Below, one piece after another: positions 3,030-13,791 of a stretch of DNA of 29,852 bases; positions within the stretch are counted from its first letter, which is position 1; every line of letters starts with the position of its first letter. The DNA comes from a virus. Its lineage: Duplodnaviria > Caudoviricetes. Position numbers and translations under genes: made by a program. The notes under the pieces are model-generated. The model did no database searches and had not been told where the DNA came from. It was given only the letters and a program-made list of their open reading frames with translations. Location of the stretch: positions 1-29,852 of the IMG/VR virus record IMGVR_UViG_3300036783_000352, one strand, 5' to 3'.

Positions 3030-3362
3030 ATGGATGCTTTAGTTAAAATGATGGATGCAAGTAATTTAAGTGAAACGATTAAAATGTGGAGGCATATCGA
3101 AAAAACTAACGGTGTTCATGTTTTTAATGTGGATGTAAATATTATTATCCGAACGTTGTTAAAATCATATCTGATGGCCCCTGAAATGGGATATTTATTT
3201 TATCTGGCCTCAAATGTCCCTTCCCGCCCTGCAACGCATGAGTCCATATCTCTTTCTGTTAAAGATATAAAGAAAATCATTAAATACATATGCCGCGAGC
3301 AAAGACGTGAACTGAGGGAGCTTAGGATTTCAGGGTTATTTGATAACGGCTTGCCGTTTTGA
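3030..3362 (+). CDS. Hypothetical AT-rich protein, 110 aa
   Basis: GGAG RBS; stop abuts the next gene; no family recognised. Confidence 0.7.
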   Translation: MDALVKMMDASNLSETIKMWRHIEKTNGVHVFNVDVNIIIRTLLKSYLMAPEMGYLFYLASNVPSRPATHESISLSVKDIKKIIKYICREQRRELRELRISGLFDNGLPF

Positions 3363-4172: not shown

Positions 4173-6471
4173 CGTTAAGGGGCGCAGAGCCCCGGCTCCA
4201 TATCTGAAAAATACCAGCGCAGTAATGGCTGGTATTTACTTATCCGCAGCACCTCGCGATACACCCGTTTACGATCCGAATGACAGACCTCTTACGCGTG
4301 ACGAATACCGTCAGGCGCAAGACGTTTTCTCGCTGATTAATTCCCTGCCTCATAACCTGGCAACGCACTTTACTAACCGCTGGCTGACGAAGAAAAAAGA
4401 ACTCGGCCAGGTTGGCGGCCTGCGTTTCCTGACCCGGACGTTTAAAGACCGAACATGGCCGCGCCTTGAAAAGGTGAACGCCCGCCACGGTATGAACATT
4501 AACGCCTCTGTGTGTTTTCTGTCTGAAAGTGAGGAATATTCCCGCCTGCCGATGCTGAAAAGTAAGGAGCTGGAAAAGCTGGCCGGTCGTATCGCTGCGG
4601 CGCTTTTTTCTGCTTACGAGGAGCTGGCCGACGCCTTTGCCGCTGAGCATGAAAGCGAGGGGGATAAAAATGAGGTGTTATTCACGGCCAGCGCCCAATC
4701 GTATCTTTACGGCAAGGTGGCCGGGGCGGCTCGCGCTCTAAACGTCACTCCGTTGCACTGGGAAAAATACCGTAAGGGTAAGCTGACGATTGCTAATGCG
4801 TATTCGGCCATAGCCCGGCTTATCAGTGATGACTGGTGGCTCCGCCAGCTCAAGGCGCAGCGTACCCGCTGGAATGAAGCGCTGTTGATTGCTGCTGGCC
4901 TGGTAAATAAAACCTACTCCCCTTACGCCAGTAAACAGGCCGTGCGGGAAGTGCAGGCGCGCCGCCTGGCTAATCTGGAATACCTGAAACAATGCGAGCT
5001 GGAGAACGTCAATACAGGCGAGCGAATCGACCTGATTGATAAAGTGCTTAAGAGTATTTCTAACCCTGAAATACGCCGCATGGAGCTGATGAATACTATT
5101 GCTGGCATTGAGCGTTACGCGGGCAGCGTGGGCCACATCGGCATGTTTATCACCCTCACCACGCCATCAAAATATCACCCGACGCGCATCGTGGGGAAAG
5201 ATAAGACCGTTCAACTCAATCATAAGTGGAATGACGAGGCGTGCAGCCCCAAAGACGGCCAGCGTTATCTCTGCAACATATTCAGCAAAATGCGCACCGC
5301 GTTTAAAGATAACGACCTGCAAGTTTACGGCCTGCGCGTCGTTGAGCCTCACCATGATGGAACGCCGCACTGGCACATGATGCTGTTTTGCGAACGCAGC
5401 CAGCGAAAAGAGATTGTCGAGATAATGCGCCGCTACGCCATGAAAGAAGATGGTAACGAGCGAGGCGCGGCTAAAAATCGCTTTGACTGCAAGCATTTAA
5501 TCAAGGGTAAGGCTGCGGGTTATGTCGCGAAATATATCGCAAAAAATATCGACGGTTACGCGCTGGCCGGTGAAGTCGACCACGACACCGGCAGACCATT
5601 AACGGAAACCGCCGCAGCCGTTAACGCCTGGGCGTCTACGTGGCGTATTCCTCAGTTTAAAACGATTGGTGTGCCGACAATGGGCGCTTACCGTGAGCTG
5701 CGTAAGTTGCCGCGTGGTGTCAGCGTTGCCAGTGAATTTGACGAGCGGGTCGAAGCTGCCCGCGCTGCGGCTGATTACGGTGATTTTGATTTGTATATCG
5801 CTGCGCAGGGCGGGGCGAATGTTCCCCGCGATTCGCAGACCGTCAGGGTTGCCCGCAAAGTTCTGGAAGAGCGAAACGACTACGACGAGGAAGTTAAAAA
5901 AGTTGTTGGCGTTTTCGCCCCGCACCTCGGCGCGGATCGTGTCCACGTCACCCGCACCGAAGAGTGGCGCATTGTCGCTAAGGCCGTTGACGTTGACCTT
6001 AATCTTTTGACTTTAAAGGGCGGTTCATCCGCCCCTCGGAGTCCTGTCAATAACTGTGGGTCAGGTGGTTTTAACACCAGCGCAGATATGACACCTACAC
6101 CGTCTGAGCAAGCCGCAGCGGTGCTAAATCTTCTCGATAGCGGGGATGTGAGCTGGAGCGACGCAGACGTTAAGGCGGTGCTCAGGGGGGCTTTACGCGA
6201 ACAGTCACCGAGGGCGAAGTCGTCGCAGCAAAGCCATAACCCGACTAAGGCCAGCAAACACGCACCGTCAGCACGTTTAACCCGCCAGCAGCGCGACCGC
6301 ATTCCTCGCATTCGCTTTGAGCTTTCGCAGCAGGGCATAACCCCGCAGCGCTGGGAGCTTGAGGCGCTGGCGCGTGGGGCAACGGTTAGCTATGCAGGCA
6401 AAAAATTCTCTTATCCGGTCGCTGATGAGTGGCCGGGATTTTCTGGAAATGAGGAAGTGAAACTATGTTAA
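4162..6471 (+). CDS. A: Rolling-circle replication initiator gpA (HUH endonuclease)
   Basis: FITLTTPS, EPHHDGTPHWH (HUH), GYVAKYIAKNIDG (two Tyr); probable start ATG 4162. Confidence 0.96.
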   Translation: MLANVKGRRAPAPYLKNTSAVMAGIYLSAAPRDTPVYDPNDRPLTRDEYRQAQDVFSLINSLPHNLATHFTNRWLTKKKELGQVGGLRFLTRTFKDRTWPRLEKVNARHGMNINASVCFLSESEEYSRLPMLKSKELEKLAGRIAAALFSAYEELADAFAAEHESEGDKNEVLFTASAQSYLYGKVAGAARALNVTPLHWEKYRKGKLTIANAYSAIARLISDDWWLRQLKAQRTRWNEALLIAAGLVNKTYSPYASKQAVREVQARRLANLEYLKQCELENVNTGERIDLIDKVLKSISNPEIRRMELMNTIAGIERYAGSVGHIGMFITLTTPSKYHPTRIVGKDKTVQLNHKWNDEACSPKDGQRYLCNIFSKMRTAFKDNDLQVYGLRVVEPHHDGTPHWHMMLFCERSQRKEIVEIMRRYAMKEDGNERGAAKNRFDCKHLIKGKAAGYVAKYIAKNIDGYALAGEVDHDTGRPLTETAAAVNAWASTWRIPQFKTIGVPTMGAYRELRKLPRGVSVASEFDERVEAARAAADYGDFDLYIAAQGGANVPRDSQTVRVARKVLEERNDYDEEVKKVVGVFAPHLGADRVHVTRTEEWRIVAKAVDVDLNLLTLKGGSSAPRSPVNNCGSGGFNTSADMTPTPSEQAAAVLNLLDSGDVSWSDADVKAVLRGALREQSPRAKSSQQSHNPTKASKHAPSARLTRQQRDRIPRIRFELSQQGITPQRWELEALARGATVSYAGKKFSYPVADEWPGFSGNEEVKLC
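6031..6059 (+). other. Replication origin (gpA nick site) inside A
   Basis: GCCCCTCGGAGTCCTGTCAATAACTGTGG, near-identical to the P2 ori. Confidence 0.85.
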
Positions 6472-6749
6472 AAGCAAATATAAGCAATAACATCGAAGCG
6501 CGAAAGAATGTAGTGAATTTGTTAAGCGCTGGCGCAATGTTCCGTATGCATGCCCGTCAACTTACGTTATCCCGCAATGAAATTGACACTGATTCAATGC
6601 GGGAAAGCCTGGACGATATCTTTGATGGTTCGGGTATCCCATCGCAGTATGTCGAGCTGTTCAAGATGGTATGTGACCTTGAGTTTGTTGAGGCTGCCGG
6701 TTCGGCGATGGTCGATTGTTACTATGTTCGGGAGGCCCGCAATGACTAG
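6465..6749 (+). CDS. Hypothetical protein, 94 aa
   Basis: GAGG upstream; overlaps the A stop and the next start. Confidence 0.7.
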   Translation: MLKANISNNIEARKNVVNLLSAGAMFRMHARQLTLSRNEIDTDSMRESLDDIFDGSGIPSQYVELFKMVCDLEFVEAAGSAMVDCYYVREARND

Positions 6750-7086
6750 CGCTCTCGAAATGCCCACGCTACAGGAATTAATTATGTGCGAAATTGGCGA
6801 TTTTTTTGCAAGTTTTGGTCAGCCAGGCGAGCCAGAAACGCCAGAGGAAATGCAGCAGCAGTTATCAGCGCGAGTAGTGTCGCTCATGACCAATAGCCAC
6901 CAGACAGAGCCAGTATACCAATATCGCGAGATTGATTCCGGGCTGTGGGATGAGTGCGGGGAGGTGTGGTATAGGCATTGCTGCGTCTCGCCAGAGCATG
7001 AAACAAGAATCCTCTATACCTGCCCGTCGTTGTTTTCAGCGTCGGTAGAAATTAAGGGGGCTTTATGCACCAGTTGCCAAAAATGA
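6742..7086 (+). CDS. Hypothetical protein, 114 aa
   Basis: GGAGG RBS before ATG 6742 (internal start of ORF 6550..7086). Confidence 0.7.
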   Translation: MTSALEMPTLQELIMCEIGDFFASFGQPGEPETPEEMQQQLSARVVSLMTNSHQTEPVYQYREIDSGLWDECGEVWYRHCCVSPEHETRILYTCPSLFSASVEIKGALCTSCQK

Positions 7087-7322
7087 GCCCGATTCCGCCC
7101 AGACATTCGATCCAAAGCCTCAAGCTGATGGGTATCGTTAGCCGCTTGCAGCAGATTATGGTTAACGAAAATATCACCCCGGCGGAGCTGGTCGGGTGCG
7201 CCGAAGTCGTCAGAGATAACGCCGTTAAATATTATGAGATTAGTCACCCTGAGCCGGTGACATTTACACCGGCAAAGGGGCCGGAAATCCCACGGTATGC
7301 TCCGCCTCCGCGCTACCGATAA
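7065..7322 (+). CDS. Hypothetical protein of a type recalled downstream of A in P2-like phages, 85 aa
   Basis: AAGGGGG RBS; IVSRLQQIMVNENITPAELVGCAEVVRDN; followed by a terminator. Confidence 0.75.
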   Translation: MHQLPKMSPIPPRHSIQSLKLMGIVSRLQQIMVNENITPAELVGCAEVVRDNAVKYYEISHPEPVTFTPAKGPEIPRYAPPPRYR

Positions 7323-7331
7323 ATCACACTG

Positions 7332-7360
7332 AAACCGGCAATAAATTTGCCGGTTTTTTT
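7332..7360 (+). terminator. Intrinsic terminator of the early operon
   Basis: AAACCGGCAA-TAAAT-TTGCCGGTTT followed by a T run. Confidence 0.88.
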
Positions 7361-7518
7361 ATGCGTTTTCTGCAAAAATCCCCGTAATTAGCGTTGCATG
7401 CGCCAGGCGCATGCTTTTGCATCCATTCAGTAATTATTTTTAACCCTACAAGCGCCAGCCCTGGCGCGGCTCCGGGCGGCTCATGCACCTGCATTAAAAC
7501 CGACCCATAAAGCGGGCA

Positions 7519-7537
7519 GGCGTGGCGGGGATAGCAT
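7519..7537 (+). other. cos site (19-nt cohesive end)
   Basis: GGCGTGGCGGGGATAGCAT in AAGCGGGCA...TGCGCGC context, matching P2/186 cos; lies between early genes and portal. Confidence 0.92.
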
Positions 7538-7681
7538 TGCGCGCTGAGGCGCTTTTTATTTTATTTATTTAGCGTCTGAGTGCGTCATGGTGGCTGTGGC
7601 GTTGTTGTGGTAATACCAAGCGCGGGTTGTGCGCGTGCGCGGCGTGTGGCGCGTCTGGTGGCGTGTGCGAAAGGGTGAGAG

Positions 7682-7702
7682 AGCGCCATTTTTAGTGGCG
7701 CT
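7682..7702. terminator. Hairpin downstream of the leftward packaging operon, possible terminator
   Basis: AGCGCCA-TTTTTAG-TGGCGCT; weak pyrimidine tail on the minus strand. Confidence 0.45.
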
Positions 7703-7728
7703 TTATTGGGTGCAGAGTTAGCTGGCTT

Positions 7729-8100
7729 TTAGCAGTCGGTGAGTAAATGGTGGTGGCCGATAGGTAAGCGATAATTTTCACTCTTAACACAACCGGGGCA
7801 AGGGGTGCCGGTATTTTTGTTAACCCTGATAGCCTTATCATCCCATAACTCAATCATTGAGCTGTCCTTAACGTTGGTTACGCTAAGTTGCGGTAAGTTG
7901 TTATCTTTTAGCCACTGGCTAACAGCGCGCTTGCCTGCAAGGGTCTCGGCGCGGGCAGTAAAAATACGCACCTCCTGATTGACCTGATGCCAGTGCCTTA
8001 CTCGTTTTGCCATGTCAAACACCGGCTTTCCTATCGTCGAACCTTGCCCTGGCTGGTAACGGGCCAGAGTCCCGTCTAAGTCAACACCAATCCAACCCAT
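7729..8100 (-). CDS. Small capless HAD-superfamily phosphatase-like protein, 123 aa
   Basis: Motif I IGVDLDGTLA, motif II IFTAR, Lys (NVK), motif IV LWDDKA; GGAG RBS in the end of Q. Confidence 0.85.
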   Translation of the reverse strand: MGWIGVDLDGTLARYQPGQGSTIGKPVFDMAKRVRHWHQVNQEVRIFTARAETLAGKRAVSQWLKDNNLPQLSVTNVKDSSMIELWDDKAIRVNKNTGTPCPGCVKSENYRLPIGHHHLLTDC

Positions 8101-8103
8101 TGT

Positions 8104-9135
8104 TTACTCCTTCCGCGATTCAAGTTCGTAGGGTTTAAACCTGATAACTTCCATTCCGATCCAGTCGTTAAGCTCTTTCATTCGCTCCTGCAATGGCGTC
8201 AGCTCGTTACGCACAAAGACCTGTGCGGCTTTCACCACGTCACCAAATCCGCCGGTGTTGTTCGGCATTACGCCCATCATCTGCGGCGGTACGCGGTGCG
8301 CGCTCATTAAGTCCTCGGCGCTCGCTTTCTTGATGTTAAAGAAATCGTCTTTGGTAGCTACCTCGCTGAGCGGCAAAATCTTGATACCGTCGGGCTTGCC
8401 GTTCGGGGCATAGTAAAACAGATTCTTAAAGTTCCCCAGACCCTTTGAGCTGCGCATGGCCTTGCGTAGCTCGTCGACGTCGGTGCCGCTTTGTGCGGAG
8501 TCAGTGACATACATGATGTAACCTGCGTGTGCGCCGTTCTGGTAATACTTGCGGCGGAACAGCGTCGCGGATTCATTCAGCCAGGCTGAATTGAGCGCCG
8601 CCAGGTATTCCGGCAGACCGTAAATCTCCTGATTGATATCAGGCTCCAGCAGATGAAACACCGAGCCCGGCGCAAATTCATGCGGGCTGGTAAACGACTG
8701 CACAAACCAGTAAACCCCCTGGGCTACACCTTTTCGCGTGTACTTGGCCGGTGACGTCTCCAGCTTTAAGAGCCGGTTGGTCATGCTCAGACGCTTCTCA
8801 ATAAACGCGTTGCCAAACACCAGGAAATCCAGCGCGAAGCGGCTGAAATCCTGCTGCGAAAGCAACGGGTGCGGGATAAACGTCGAGGCGAGAATATTGC
8901 GCTTAACGTAAATCGGTGAGCTGTGATGAACGGCGGCGCGCAGCGTTTTCGCCAGGCCCGTAAAGCTGACCGGCGGCTCGTACCAGTCACCGTTAGCGAC
9001 GCATTCCGCATAATCCAGGATGTCGCGCCGATCCAGTACGGCTGACGGCTCGCCAAAGGTGAACGCCTCCATTTTTTGGGATGGGGCCGGGGGCGCTTCC
9101 TGCGCCGGGGTGTTGTGCTTTTTGCGCTTGCTCAT
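8104..9135 (-). CDS. Q: Portal protein
   Basis: 343 aa; EAFTFGEP, HHSSPIYVKRN, YYQNGAHAG, AHRVPPQMMG. Confidence 0.97.
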   Translation of the reverse strand: MSKRKKHNTPAQEAPPAPSQKMEAFTFGEPSAVLDRRDILDYAECVANGDWYEPPVSFTGLAKTLRAAVHHSSPIYVKRNILASTFIPHPLLSQQDFSRFALDFLVFGNAFIEKRLSMTNRLLKLETSPAKYTRKGVAQGVYWFVQSFTSPHEFAPGSVFHLLEPDINQEIYGLPEYLAALNSAWLNESATLFRRKYYQNGAHAGYIMYVTDSAQSGTDVDELRKAMRSSKGLGNFKNLFYYAPNGKPDGIKILPLSEVATKDDFFNIKKASAEDLMSAHRVPPQMMGVMPNNTGGFGDVVKAAQVFVRNELTPLQERMKELNDWIGMEVIRFKPYELESRKE

Positions 9136-9809
9136 TTCGCCGCCTTATTTTTTTCCTGCGGCCAGACAGCCGAAAACAGCATGTCAAAATCCTCTGCCGG
9201 ATACTGCGATTTAAGTGCGGGCAGATTCAGAATTGTGCTCTCCTGGGCGTGTGCGTCCTGGGCGGAGAGTCGCTGCTGGTTCTCCGGTTTTTCTGTCGCC
9301 CAAAGCCTGTAGGCCTCGTTACTTGGTGAGGGTGTTGTATAGGCGGTAAAGCGATATTTTGCTTGTGCTGCTAATCCCTTAGCCACCTTGAATAAATTGG
9401 CCGGTTTTTCCGCCCAGGCGTATTCACTGACATACACGTTTCCATGCTTCGCCGCAAAATGGTCGTACTCGCCCATAAAGCCAATTTCAGCACCGTTCGC
9501 CAGCTGGATAGAAGAGTTATCCGGGGGGATTTCTACGCCCGCAAGTGCGGCAAAGTGAACAATTCGTTGCCGGTTCTGCGCTACTGCGTGGTCTGCGGCG
9601 GGTGCCAGAAAATATTGATTGCGGCCCGTCTCGATGGCGTCAATCAATGCCTCAAGCGAGAAATACCAGTCGGCCCCGCACTGCCGGGTTTTAGTGATGT
9701 GGCGGGTGCGGCTCTGTGAAATAAACCAGCGGCGCTGGTACTCAAAGCCGGTGCGGGAAAGCAGGTTTTTTAACGTGGCGGCTTGCAGGCCGGTAAATTC
9801 ATAGCGCAT
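9132..9809 (-). CDS. Terminase ATPase-domain paralog lacking the nuclease domain, 225 aa
   Basis: Collinear with gpP of this window: FEYQ, KTRQCGAD, TGRNQYFL, NGAEIGFMG, VYVSE, YTTPS, AEDF; coupled to P (TAATG) and Q (ATGA). Confidence 0.85.
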   Translation of the reverse strand: MRYEFTGLQAATLKNLLSRTGFEYQRRWFISQSRTRHITKTRQCGADWYFSLEALIDAIETGRNQYFLAPAADHAVAQNRQRIVHFAALAGVEIPPDNSSIQLANGAEIGFMGEYDHFAAKHGNVYVSEYAWAEKPANLFKVAKGLAAQAKYRFTAYTTPSPSNEAYRLWATEKPENQQRLSAQDAHAQESTILNLPALKSQYPAEDFDMLFSAVWPQEKNKAAK

Positions 9810-11581
9810 TAGTTGAACTCCAGAATAGATACAGGGGCGGTGCCACTACCTGCGGTCAGCGGCTCATTTAAAAGGGCGTGCATGGTTGCCCATGCCACGT
9901 CTGCGTGGCTGGCTTCCTCGCTGCGGCTGGCGTCGTAAGTGGCGCTGCGGCCGCTGCTGGTCATGGTTTTGCGGATTGACATAAACGAGGCGGTGATGTC
10001 GGTGTAGCTGACGTCATACTCCAGGCAACCGCGGGCGATGGTGTCTTTGGCTTTCAGCACCATGGCGGTTTTCACCTCCGGGCTGTAGCGGATTTCACGC
10101 GCTGCGGGGTAGAAACCACGGACAAGCTGGTAAACCCCCTGGCCGATGCCGGTTGCATCGATGCCGATATACTCGACGTGGTATTTTTCGGTCAGCTTTC
10201 TGATGGACTCCGCCTGCGTGGCAAAATCCATCCCCTTCCACTGGTGGCGCTCCAGAATGCGGAACTTGCCCCCGGCGACGACCGGCGGGGCCAGCACCAC
10301 GCATCCGGCGCTGTCGCCGGTGTGCGACGGGTCGTAACCAATCCATACCGGACGATAGCCAAACGGGCGCGTCGCGAACGGTTGCCAGTCGTCAGCCCAG
10401 GCTTCCATGCTGTCGACCATACAGCGTTGCAGCTCCTCAAACGGGAATACGGACGCCTTATCGTCGACAAACTCGCACATGAAGAGATTGCGGAAATCCT
10501 CGGCGCTGTTTTCGCGCTTAAGCGTGTCCAGATTGAAAAGGTCGCAGCCGCCGGCGAGCGCGTCCTCAATCGTCACAATCTGCCGCCACTGACCATCCGC
10601 GCAGGCCATGCCGTTTTTTAGCGCAGCATGGCTGACGTCCAGGTCGACACGCTCGCTTTTATCTGCCCGGCCTTTGTTGAACAGCTCACCCGACCAGAAC
10701 GGGTAAGCCCCGTGCGCCAGTGTCGACGGGGTGGAAAAGTAGGTCGAGCGCAGGTGTTGCTGTGAGGCCATGCCGGAGGCGACCTTTCGCAGCTTCTGAA
10801 AGTTGGGTATCCAGAAAATTTCGTCGACCAGCAGGTCGCCGTTATGGCTCTGCGCTGTGTTGGAATTTGTGCCGAGAAAAATCAGCTTTGCGCCGTTGTT
10901 GCCGAGTACGATCGGGTCGCCGGTCAGGTCAACATCGACCAGTCGCGCAAACTGAATGATGTACTCGCGGAATACGTAGGCCTGCGTCTTGCTGGCCGAG
11001 AGGAAAATCTGGTTATGGCCGGTTTTCAGGGCGCGCAGCAGCGACTCGCGGGAGAAATAAAACGTCGCGCCAATCTGGCGGGATTTAAGAATGTTACGGA
11101 TACGGTGCGCCAGCCCGGCCCTGTGCCAGCCGAGCTGATACTCGAAGGATTCCGCAAAGAAAATCTCCTCGAGCTTTTCGATAGCCTCCTCGCTGAAATA
11201 GTTCTTTTTCGGCTTCTTGCGCTCCCCTTTGTTCCTGTTTGCCACGTTCGGATTCAGGTCGACCTCGTTACCCGTCTGGCCGTAGCGATTCACCCTGGCT
11301 AAACGCTCCATTTGTCGTGACAAAAAGTCAGCGACTTTGAAGTCGTGCGCGGTCAGGTCGGGCTTTGCATAGAGCTGAATTAATCGCGCCTCCAGCGTGT
11401 TTTCAACCCGGCTTATCGGGGCGGTTTCCTCCCACTGGTCGCGCTGTTTCCAGCTCTGCACCGTGGGGCGTTTGGTCTTGAGCATTTCCGCGATTTGCGG
11501 CACGGAAAAGCCCTGCCAGTAGAGCAGGGCGGCCTGCCGTCGTGGGTCGTTAAGAATGGAGGTGTCAGTGGTGATGGTCAT
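9809..11581 (-). CDS. P: Terminase large (ATPase/nuclease) subunit
   Basis: 590 aa; LKSRQIGAT, LLVDE, WIGYDPS, HADVAWA. Confidence 0.97.
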   Translation of the reverse strand: MTITTDTSILNDPRRQAALLYWQGFSVPQIAEMLKTKRPTVQSWKQRDQWEETAPISRVENTLEARLIQLYAKPDLTAHDFKVADFLSRQMERLARVNRYGQTGNEVDLNPNVANRNKGERKKPKKNYFSEEAIEKLEEIFFAESFEYQLGWHRAGLAHRIRNILKSRQIGATFYFSRESLLRALKTGHNQIFLSASKTQAYVFREYIIQFARLVDVDLTGDPIVLGNNGAKLIFLGTNSNTAQSHNGDLLVDEIFWIPNFQKLRKVASGMASQQHLRSTYFSTPSTLAHGAYPFWSGELFNKGRADKSERVDLDVSHAALKNGMACADGQWRQIVTIEDALAGGCDLFNLDTLKRENSAEDFRNLFMCEFVDDKASVFPFEELQRCMVDSMEAWADDWQPFATRPFGYRPVWIGYDPSHTGDSAGCVVLAPPVVAGGKFRILERHQWKGMDFATQAESIRKLTEKYHVEYIGIDATGIGQGVYQLVRGFYPAAREIRYSPEVKTAMVLKAKDTIARGCLEYDVSYTDITASFMSIRKTMTSSGRSATYDASRSEEASHADVAWATMHALLNEPLTAGSGTAPVSILEFN

Positions 11582-11648
11582 GAATGCCTCGCCGTTAATA
11601 AAGTAAAGGCAAGGCTAAAGAAATGACGGACTGCGCGCCGTAAGGTGC

Positions 11649-11670
11649 TGTTGTGTCAGGGGTTGCACTT
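11649..11670. promoter_or_regulatory. Ogr-dependent late promoter element between divergent P and O
   Basis: TGTTGTGTCA, shared as TGTTGTRYYA with the regions upstream of V (17489) and FI (21482). Confidence 0.55.
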
Positions 11671-11741
11671 CTGTAACGGGTGGTCGGGGTGGGGCGAGTC
11701 GGGAAAACTAGGCGTCTCAAACCCAACCAGGACAACCGAGA

Positions 11742-12593
11742 ATGGCAAAGACAAAGAAGATTTCGAAATGGTTTCGCATTGGCGTCGAGGGTGACACCTG
11801 CGATGGCCGCATTATCAGCGGCGCTGATATTCAGGAAATGGCTGACACCTACGACACCCGCGTTTACGGGGCGCGCATCAATCTGGAGCATATCAAGGGC
11901 CTGATGCCTGACAGTCCTTTCTGCCGCTATGGTGATGTGGCCGAGGTGAAAGCCGAGAAGATTTCCGACGACTCCGCGCTGAACGGCAAGCTTGCTTTAT
12001 TCGCCCGTATCGCCCCGCTGGATAACCTGGTCGAGATGGTCGGCAAGGGCCAGAAAGTTTATACCTCTATGGAAATTCGCCCGAATTTCTCTAACTCCGG
12101 GAAGTGCTATCTGGTTGGTCTGGCCGTTACCGACGACCCGGCAAGCCTCGGCACGGAATACCTTGAGTTTTGTTCCCGCGCCAGAACTAACCCGCTCGCC
12201 GGTCGCAAAGAGTGCCCGGAAGATTTGTTCTCTGTTGCCACGCTCGCCGTACTGGAATTTGAAGAGCAGGCCGACACCATGTTTACCGCCCTGGCCGACA
12301 AGGTGAAAGGTATTTTCAGCCGCAAGCAGGCCAGCGACGACGCCCGATTTACTGACGTGCATGAGGCGGTAACGGTGGTGACTGAGCAGGTGCAGGCCAA
12401 TCACGAAGCCACCGAGCAGCGCCTTGCGGCGGTGGAATTATCCCTCCAGACCCTGACGGCCAGCGTTGGCGAAAGTCAGACCGAGCTGACCTCGCTCAAG
12501 ACCACGCTGGATAAAACAGAAAACCAGACATATTCGCGCCGCCAGAAGAGCACCGGCGGGGAAGGTGACGAGACGAGTCTGACCGACTGCTGA
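11742..12593 (+). CDS. O: Capsid scaffolding protein/protease
   Basis: WFRIGVEGDTCDGR, RINLEH, YTSMEI, GLAVTDDPASLGTE. Confidence 0.96.
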   Translation: MAKTKKISKWFRIGVEGDTCDGRIISGADIQEMADTYDTRVYGARINLEHIKGLMPDSPFCRYGDVAEVKAEKISDDSALNGKLALFARIAPLDNLVEMVGKGQKVYTSMEIRPNFSNSGKCYLVGLAVTDDPASLGTEYLEFCSRARTNPLAGRKECPEDLFSVATLAVLEFEEQADTMFTALADKVKGIFSRKQASDDARFTDVHEAVTVVTEQVQANHEATEQRLAAVELSLQTLTASVGESQTELTSLKTTLDKTENQTYSRRQKSTGGEGDETSLTDC

Positions 12594-12639: not shown

Positions 12640-13791
12640 ATGCGTAAAGAAACCCGCTTTGAATTTAATAAGTACCTGAGCCGTATTGCCGAGCTGAACG
12701 GCGTCGACGTTGCCGATCTGAATAAAAAATTCAGCGTCGAGCCGTCGGTGACACAGAAGCTCTTTGATAAAATTCAGCAGTCCTCTTCCTTCCTGAAACA
12801 AATCAATATGATTGTGGTGCAGGAGCTGACGGAGGAAAAAGTCGGTATTGATGTCACCGGTTCCATTGCCAGCACGGCGGATACCGACAACGGCGTCGAG
12901 CGTAAAACCGCCGATTTTGCAAAGCTTGATTCCTTCCGCTACTTCTGCAAGCCGGTCAACTTTGACTATCACCTGAAGTACAACAAGCTGGATTTATGGG
13001 CGCGTTTCCAGGACTTCCAGATCCGAATCCGTAACGCCATCGTCAAGCGCCAGTCGCTGGACTACATCACCATTGGTTTTAACGGCGTGAGCCGTGCCGC
13101 CACTTCAAACCGCACCGAAAACCCGATGTTGCAGGACGTCGCGGTCGGCTGGTTGCAGAAGTACCGCAACGACGCGCCGAACCGCGTGATGAGTAAGGTT
13201 GTCGACGACGAGGGCGCGGTGGTTTCCGACACCATCAAAATTGGCCCGAAAGCCAAAGGCGGAAACTACGCAAACCTCGATGCGCTGGTGATGGATGCGC
13301 ACGAATCCCTGATTGACGAGATTCACCGCGAAAACCCGGAAATGGTGGTCATTTGTGGCCGCCGTATCCTGACCGACAAATATTTCCCGATGATTAACAA
13401 GTTCCAGGCGAACAGCGAACAGCTCGCCGGTGAGCTGATTATTAGCCAGAAAACCATCGGCCAGCTCCAGGCGGTGCGCGCGCCGTTCTTCCCGGCCAAC
13501 AGCATTTTCATTACCACGCTGGATAATATTTCTATCTATCTCTACGAGGACGGCCATCGCCGCCACATCGTCGAGAATCCGAAGCTTGACCAGGTGGAAA
13601 ACTACGAGCAGGTGAAGGTCGATTTTGTTATCGAAGACTACGCCGCCGGCTGTCTGATTGAGAATATCGAGATTCTGGAGCAGGACGAAGCCGAAACCCC
13701 GGAAACGGCAAGCGCAGACGTCTTTGCGGCGGCGGTGGTCAATGCCCTGAAAGCGCTGACTTCCCCGGAAGATAACGGCGGGGCGGAGTAA
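12640..13791 (+). CDS. N: Major capsid protein
   Basis: MRKETRFEFNKYL, KFSVEPSVTQ, NPMLQDVAVGWLQKYR. Confidence 0.96.
   Translation: MRKETRFEFNKYLSRIAELNGVDVADLNKKFSVEPSVTQKLFDKIQQSSSFLKQINMIVVQELTEEKVGIDVTGSIASTADTDNGVERKTADFAKLDSFRYFCKPVNFDYHLKYNKLDLWARFQDFQIRIRNAIVKRQSLDYITIGFNGVSRAATSNRTENPMLQDVAVGWLQKYRNDAPNRVMSKVVDDEGAVVSDTIKIGPKAKGGNYANLDALVMDAHESLIDEIHRENPEMVVICGRRILTDKYFPMINKFQANSEQLAGELIISQKTIGQLQAVRAPFFPANSIFITTLDNISIYLYEDGHRRHIVENPKLDQVENYEQVKVDFVIEDYAAGCLIENIEILEQDEAETPETASADVFAAAVVNALKALTSPEDNGGAE

Follow-up and report, generated by a model that had tools for sequence, protein, structure and literature searches.

A capless HAD phosphatase-like protein with a scaffold-like C-terminal tail in P2-like phages and in satellites of the P4 type

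The HAD gene and its place in the late operon

The window analysed here (29,852 nucleotides, positions 1 to 29,852 of IMG/VR record IMGVR_UViG_3300036783_000352) is a P2-like prophage that carries a small HAD-superfamily gene directly after its portal gene (Table 1). The portal stop codon occupies 8106-8104 and, after 3 nt, the HAD reading frame opens with an ATG at 8100. Past the HAD stop codon stands a hairpin at the place of P2 tQ, the terminator after Q; its T run is weak and a terminator scan did not call it, and a hairpin followed by a T run was seen by eye after the HAD stop in 8 of the 14 related loci inspected. Taken together, this hairpin and the cos-like site place the HAD gene last in the late P operon and on the same side of cos as the portal gene. 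A promoter scan found no sigma-70-like promoter in 7300-11800.

Elsewhere in the window an extra terminase-ATPase-like gene of 225 aa (9132-9809, minus strand; PF03237, PHROG 3746) lies between P and Q. A similar P-Q gap of 750-820 bp is found in 5/48 loci (the window, L001, L013, L211 and L248), three of which have the HAD gene. The small ORFs at 1801-2187, 3030-3362, 6465-6749, 6703-7086 and 7065-7322, in the early region or post-A, have no Pfam family, and three of them match unnamed PHROGs.

Table 1. Features of the HAD gene, its neighbourhood and the head genes in the window
Feature	Position	Strand	Basis
HAD gene, 123 aa; capless HAD-superfamily phosphatase-like protein with scaffold-like C-terminus	7729..8100	-	ORF, profiles, AF2 model
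HAD motif I (D7-L-D9-G-T11), predicted nucleophile and acid/base	8068..8082	-	D7, D9 and G10 invariant in A1
HAD motifs II-IV	7837..7959	-	Invariant in A1
T48; K78; D87-D88	7959-7957; 7869-7867; 7842-7837	-	
CxxC (C101-C104), marker of the P2/P4-associated clade, tailed or untailed	7789..7800	-	
Variable linker, disordered from residue 110	7744..7788	-	AF2, linker comparison
Scaffold-like tail, LTDC-stop	7729..7743	-	
Portal gene Q, directly upstream of the HAD gene in the late P operon	8104..9135	-	PF04860
Shine-Dalgarno-like AAGGAG within the last portal codons	8107..8112	-	Sequence
7-bp hairpin after the HAD stop, at the P2 tQ place	7682..7702	-	
cos-like site, 16/19 identical to P2 cosL	7519..7537	+	
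Scaffold/protease gene O (tail LTDC-stop at 12579-12593)	11742..12593	+	PF05929, E 4e-102
Major capsid gene N, putative binding partner	12640..13791	+	PF05125

The protein is a capless, phosphatase-like HAD, with an activity that is predicted from motifs I-IV and the fold. In established HAD chemistry motif I supplies the nucleophile and the acid/base. The first-pass annotation, made from the letters of the window, had described motifs I-IV followed by a CPGC...HHH linker. The motifs hold: D7/D9, T48, K78 and D87/D88 are all invariant in alignment A1, and strict patterns of all four motifs are present in 35/44 tailed proteins. As for the linker, the CxxC is conserved, being invariant among the tailed proteins of A1, whereas the HHH is not. 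The rows of A1 (35 of 120 listed homologs, the query included) were picked out visually because they end in [TV][DN]C, and the conservation of the tail in that alignment is therefore a product of selection.

In profile searches the window protein matched PHROG 1238 (E 1e-8) and PHROG 415 (E 4e-6). Against PF24694 it scored 20.8 bits, below the 27.7 cut-off; it reached no curated profile cut-off for PNKP, BT0820, EcbF-BcbF, LNS2 or HAD-IIIA, and found no match in NCBIfam, where up to 13/35 family members have weak ones. The AF2 model (pLDDT 83.7) has a confident core with a Rossmannoid HAD fold and no cap domain; residues 110-123 fall below pLDDT 50 and the tail is not docked on the core. The top Foldseek rows are HADs at probability 1.0, with E 0.008 or worse in the PDB and 8e-8 to 9e-4 in BFVD. 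The nearest solved folds, which share the fold and motifs I-IV, are BT0820 (2obb), V. cholerae 1xpj, the T4 Pnkp 3'-phosphatase and AfhF (9iqw); all are weak neighbours (14-28% identity, Foldseek E >0.001), so no substrate is derivable from them, and the alignments shown contain no such tail.

The HAD tail and the C-terminus of the cognate scaffold

The HAD protein ends HHHLLTDC-stop and the gpO of the same prophage ends ETSLTDC-stop. The ORF translations thus bear out the LTDC end that the first-pass annotation had reported for both proteins, and the 13/15 nt match between the two stretches of DNA is also there, with both differences silent (a Leu codon and the stop codon). As a sign of DNA copying this match did not stand up: at identical residues the codons agree in 30/52 cases among cognate pairs and in 255/484 among non-cognate ones. 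Since codon agreement is no better within than between phages, the likeness of the tails points to retention at the protein level rather than recent copying of DNA. T281 and C283 of gpO are invariant in alignment A4, the rows of which were picked for this scaffold ending.

The co-variation of HAD tails with the cognate gpO tail, suggested earlier as a check, is seen throughout: HAD and gpO agree in their three final residues in 14/14 distinct phage pairs, the endings being TDC, TNC and, once, ADC. After near-duplicates had been dropped (L013, L278 and repeats), 12 phages had both tails, and the D/N state agreed in 12/12 (Fisher p 0.0013). Two further pairs were fetched after the hypothesis had been set, from records with the HAD gene far from O. 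In one of them (L144) the HAD ends QADC and its gpO KADC, a rare T-to-A change present in both; in the other (L190) both proteins end AVLTDC. Over the 14 pairs, and with kinship ignored in all of these p values, permutation gave p 0.0004 at position -2 and 0.07 at -3, where there is one event. Position -4 matches in 7/14 pairs, among them the rare Q/Q, E/E and K/K (permutation p 0.014, kinship again ignored), and at positions -7 to -12 the match is not significant (p 0.09, 14 pairs). In 3/14 pairs the HAD gene is interrupted (L045, L140 and L269), and in L045 gene O is split as well.

Endings of this kind are rare in other proteins. Outside HAD and gpO, [TA][DN]C closes 1/3,326 M-started ORFs of at least 60 aa in 111 P2/P4-type loci and 2/5,641 M-started ORFs in 195 other loci; the LTDC ending of the HAD is more than chance. 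We also searched for gpO in 12 bacterial genomes or chromosomes, seven of which gave a match: the L144 phage itself, one fragment and five complete proteins. In these five genomes, where the HAD locus has no O gene of its own and a complete gpO is encoded elsewhere (four satellite cases and one split Sodalis phage), a gpO of the matching D/N state was found in 5/5. The Pantoea genome among the records (L318, G409) has a second, unmatched gpO that ends ADY, without the terminal Cys, and is an exception to the scaffold motif. The scaffold-like tail of the HAD is, in our judgement, a real and well-supported sequence feature.

How many independent events lie behind these matches is a separate matter. 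The HAD and gpO trees are incongruent: the window HAD is nearest to TNC-type HADs, and its gpO groups differently. The D-type capsid clade to which the window belongs is nested among N types, and the scaffold D/N state requires 2 changes on the gpN tree, 3 on the gpQ tree, 4 on the gpP tree and 6 on that of the gpO body, counts that come from trees built by different methods on different rows (49-57). The low count on the gpN tree and the nested D-type clade point to gpN as the partner of the tail; the 3' end of O adjoins N, so linkage would explain the counts too and they cannot by themselves name gpN. In an AU test a single clade of TNC HADs excluding the window protein was not rejected (p 0.22), so that the D of the window may be ancestral. 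The GC content of D loci is 0.50-0.61, against 0.48-0.53 for N loci. We count only about three independent matched events at -2/-3, plus the rare matches at -4.

Tailed and untailed members, the linker and the wider family

Among 263 proteins fetched, 38 combine the CxxC with the tail, 14 have the CxxC and no tail, six have a tail without the strict pattern and 205 have neither; the tail is thus present in 38/52 and absent in 14/52 of the CxxC group, which separates from most other homologs on the tree, with weak deep support. The 210 loci with a HAD match (a count that includes duplicates between scans) comprise 32 with a tailed HAD and P2/P4 genes, three tailed without detected context, three untailed with P2/P4 context and 172 with neither. 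The three tailed loci without detected context were later placed in P2-like tail operons, and of the three untailed loci with context, one proved to have a split gene and another an ADC ending. In L297 and L150, CxxC variants without the tail stand in the same late positions next to scaffolds that end TDC, from which it follows that the tail is not strictly required. Where it is present, it persists down to about 43% protein identity next to a scrambled linker.

The gene is a rare accessory. It is absent from 43/43 loci fetched with the gpO of the window, some of them too short to reach the slot, and one HAD type was found in 9/5,426 E. coli genomes. It occurs in at least six late positions, on the same strand as, and mostly within 60 nt downstream of, portal, tape-measure, D-like, S-like, Psu/Sid-like or capsid-like genes; the D-like and S-like labels are ones we presume from the sequences. 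In P4-like satellites of E. coli and Pantoea a portal gene is accompanied by a TNC HAD.

Several of the satellite loci have features of their own. In three P4-like satellites (L004, L306:5942-7363 and L307:5942-7363) the portal gene that accompanies the TNC HAD is full-length, and the HAD genes of the E. coli satellites share ~92% DNA identity with a copy from a P2-like phage. Tandem HAD paralogs, a tailed copy directly followed by an untailed one, occur in satellite-like elements (L290:3008-3767 and L302). In another such element (L301:7935-9313) a tailed HAD has immediately upstream of it the element's own gpN homolog (330 aa, PHROG 70), and a second, untailed HAD lies at 10801-11175. In one satellite an Ogr-like zinc-finger ORF just upstream of the tailed HAD itself ends TDC (L145:3975-4193), and P0125, an apparent fusion of an Ogr-like finger to the HAD, ends ADC; the late activator may here bear the same scaffold-like tag.

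The linker after the CxxC varies from 11 to 28 aa. P2 gpN is cut between residues 31 and 32, and the protease domain of gpO ends at residue 141 (PMC7552001). Both P1 residues, gpN31 and gpO141, are F, and the residue that follows this F in cognate proteins is mostly S, T, C or A. Among tailed linkers, position +6 after the CxxC is F, L or Y in 33/55. F[ST] occurs in 10/34 reduced tailed linkers against 4.0 in shuffled ones (p 0.001), a pattern that was noticed before it was tested and of which five variants were tried; control extensions have no such excess (8/100 against 6.8). Short untailed variants end 4-8 residues after the CxxC, about where a cut product would end. Position +6 is a candidate site for the gpO protease, imperfect in the window, where Y110 makes it Y-R rather than F-S/T.

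Beyond this group the HAD family is large, with 4,855 clusters at E 0.001 or better in a full-library search and no named function. N-termini resembling the T4 capsid targeting sequence (CTS; motif from PMC8442874) were found in 5/263 proteins, distant homologs of the window HAD, two of these with a cell-wall hydrolase and one with a weak SLT match. Among 55 long homologs scanned, four contain the InPase domain of polyvalent proteins and two combine 2H, LigD 3'-phosphoesterase and DNA ligase domains. Judged from the proteins alone, outside their genomic context, these homologs suggest repeated routing of the HAD into phage heads and a link to end repair. Some BFVD rows are HADs within proteins that go by the name of prohead or head maturation protease (one, at rank 5, has E 9e-4; the others are weak). 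Further fusions, to dUTPase, a sugar transferase and TerC, show that the family serves more than one purpose. P0059, P0063, P0067, P0070, P0085, P0105, P0107, P0136 and P0207 share another recurrent extension at the N-terminus, EA-x-x-L and then an acidic stretch, which is possibly another targeting signal.

Proposed capsid loading by scaffold mimicry and its alternatives

The first-pass annotation had proposed a capsid-loaded enzyme, and loading is the reading towards which we lean: the HAD tail would dock where the scaffold C-terminus docks, the enzyme would be taken into procapsids, and it would act early in the next infection. Placement in late operons, carriage by satellites, a linker that resembles a protease site and wider-family contexts of the packaging type all fit loading; the idea that the tail is indispensable does not survive the untailed variants. 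The starting point can be read from the sequence: a last gene of a late operon, with an intact HAD site, a flexible linker and the tail of the cognate gpO. From here the tail would very probably bind the same partner as the gpO tail, the capsid protein gpN being the best candidate. The procapsid would then, we think probably, take in a few HAD copies, which in many members the gpO protease would release by cutting at F-S/T; satellites would use the capsid of their helper in trans. That the HAD leaves the head along with the DNA, to serve in counter-defence or repair, is a step on which our confidence drops to a little short of an even call. A 3'-phosphate at the end of a nucleic acid, as the substrate, is a guess and seems rather unlikely; for end healing, which the first-pass annotation had suggested, the support is confined to the fusion contexts. 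For its other suggestion, removal of nucleotide defence signals, we found no support in this analysis.

To our knowledge no ejected protein is described for P2. A 2009 study by Chang is said to have found that the terminal Cys of gpO is needed for correct P2 assembly. The C-terminal domain of gpO is the scaffold, and no ordered gpO density is present in P4 procapsids or P2 virions (PMC7552001; bioRxiv 2026.09.14.750843), so that these structures do not define a docking site for the gpO tail.

The tail and the late-operon evidence would fit equally well if the enzyme docked on the assembling head and did its job in the producing cell, with no need of injection. It might dephosphorylate the capsid, the portal or another head-bound substrate (for example, by taking off a phosphate added by a host defence kinase), or it might compete with gpO, as CpmB does, and so tune assembly. 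Capless HADs often act on macromolecular substrates; satellites carry the HAD beside Psu/Sid-like, portal or capsid-like genes; and the untailed late variants imply an enzyme that is useful without its tag. However, if the protein did no more than compete, it would have no need of a catalytic site that is invariant, and the protease-site-like linker and packaging-type family contexts point to retention in the head; we consider a role confined to the producing cell to be improbable. We give considerably less credence to a prophage or satellite defence protein or decoy, the tail of which would sense or jam the capsids of superinfecting P2-like phages. Satellites do carry the HAD, and the gene lies in the A-Q interval, a known defence hotspot, for which Table S5A of PMC9122126 lists an E. 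coli homolog, and with it the window HAD family, only as 'hypothetical'. Yet the gene belongs to late operons and shares the portal's side of cos, with no sigma-70-like promoter in the stretch scanned, and its tail matches the scaffold of its own phage. Late operons are silent in a lysogen. PADLOC gave no match to a known defence profile beyond a weak one in 1/35 members.

Two further readings deny the tail a part in docking. In one, the terminal Cys pairs with the CxxC, for metal binding or redox chemistry, and the resemblance to gpO is a coincidence. The CxxC is indeed invariant in tailed proteins and 38 of the 52 CxxC proteins are tailed, but this leaves the D/N, T/A and -4 matching to the cognate gpO unexplained; the intervening linker is of variable length, CxxC proteins without a terminal Cys exist, and the AF2 model leaves the tail undocked. 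We regard such a pairing as very unlikely. The other reading, which we would credit least, is that the tail was copied once from gene O and that the later matches reflect shared descent and GC bias, with no present function. The small number of independent changes, the AU result, the GC trend and the interrupted copies are all what it would predict; retention of the tail to about 43% identity beside a scrambled linker is not, nor is the lack of shared silent sites, nor the movement of the gene among at least six late positions on incongruent trees.

For loading by scaffold mimicry the closest precedent is CpmB of the Staphylococcus aureus SaPIs, which likewise has at its C-terminus the same short motif as the phage scaffold and which, by cryo-EM, binds the scaffold's site on the capsid (PMC6893505). 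CpmB is an alternative scaffold, found in satellites only, that changes capsid size, whereas the motif here is on an enzyme and occurs in helper phages and satellites alike; the window protein has a HAD fold rather than that of a helical dimeric scaffold and so is not a member of the CpmB family, though it may dock like one. T4 internal proteins are small accessory proteins with a short loading peptide and a single prohead-protease cut, and one of them, IPI*, is injected as counter-defence (PMC3012670, PMC8442874). Their signal is N-terminal and of about 10 aa; the window protein starts at its HAD core, with no N-terminal capsid targeting sequence, and its tail is a C-terminal copy of the scaffold end, 3-5 aa long, for which loading is proposed here from sequence. 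Encapsulin targeting peptides also bring an enzyme into a protein shell by its C-terminus, as we propose for the HAD tail, and the P22 scaffold C-terminus loads cargo when artificially fused (PMC6387247); encapsulins are compartments of the host and the P22 fusions were engineered, and the HAD tail would be a counterpart that occurs naturally in phages. For polyvalent proteins that have InPase and 2H domains, packaging in virions is predicted (PMC5512222); the window HAD has a single domain, and its core recurs within multidomain proteins that bear InPase or 2H/ligase domains. The words 'haloacid' and 'phosphatase' are absent from the main text of that paper. A HAD-superfamily protein is also part of a P4-hotspot defence system with a transmembrane protein (PMC9122126), in a P4-like element as here. 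It is larger (to residue about 280, Table S3), has a membrane partner and lies between psu and int.

The literature searched has no report of this HAD family or its tail, although the supplements of PMC5512222, PMC13586616 and PMC13100340 may list it; the available parts of PMC13586616, PMC13100340 and PMC12749128 hold nothing on the family. A natural cargo route by copying of a scaffold tag was likewise not found in the papers searched for P2-type phages. If confirmed, loading by a scaffold tail would be a new form of peptide-directed capsid loading. It would give P2 and P4 a way of carrying internal cargo that is absent from the papers searched, provide a very short tag for putting proteins into their particles and yield a candidate injected counter-defence enzyme. 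Joined together, the observations could describe a natural loading tag of 3-5 residues, copied from the scaffold and paired with a release site for the maturation protease, by which a phosphatase is injected against host defence; satellites would use the tag on helper capsids, at least once on an Ogr-like activator, and scaffold tails, T4-type signals and polyvalent fusions would each independently have brought the HAD into heads. We offer this combined picture tentatively, as one somewhat less likely to hold than not.

Structures do not yet show in what way the C-terminus of gpO engages the capsid of P2 (PMC7552001). The HAD, whose end follows the same 3-5 residues, offers a minimal ligand and natural allele pairs (TDC, TNC and ADC) with which to find the site, and the E. 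coli member WP_001547634, with the P2 O/N procapsid system already in use, makes a direct test possible. This member is of the TNC type, and P2 gpO likewise ends TNC. On the side of gpN, F31 (the P1 residue of cleavage in P2) and C103 are invariant; C103, constant in 28 gpN rows, could partner the terminal Cys. The gpN of the enteric D-type capsid clade is also longer, at 383-390 aa against 352-371 aa in N types, one 421-aa ORF aside.
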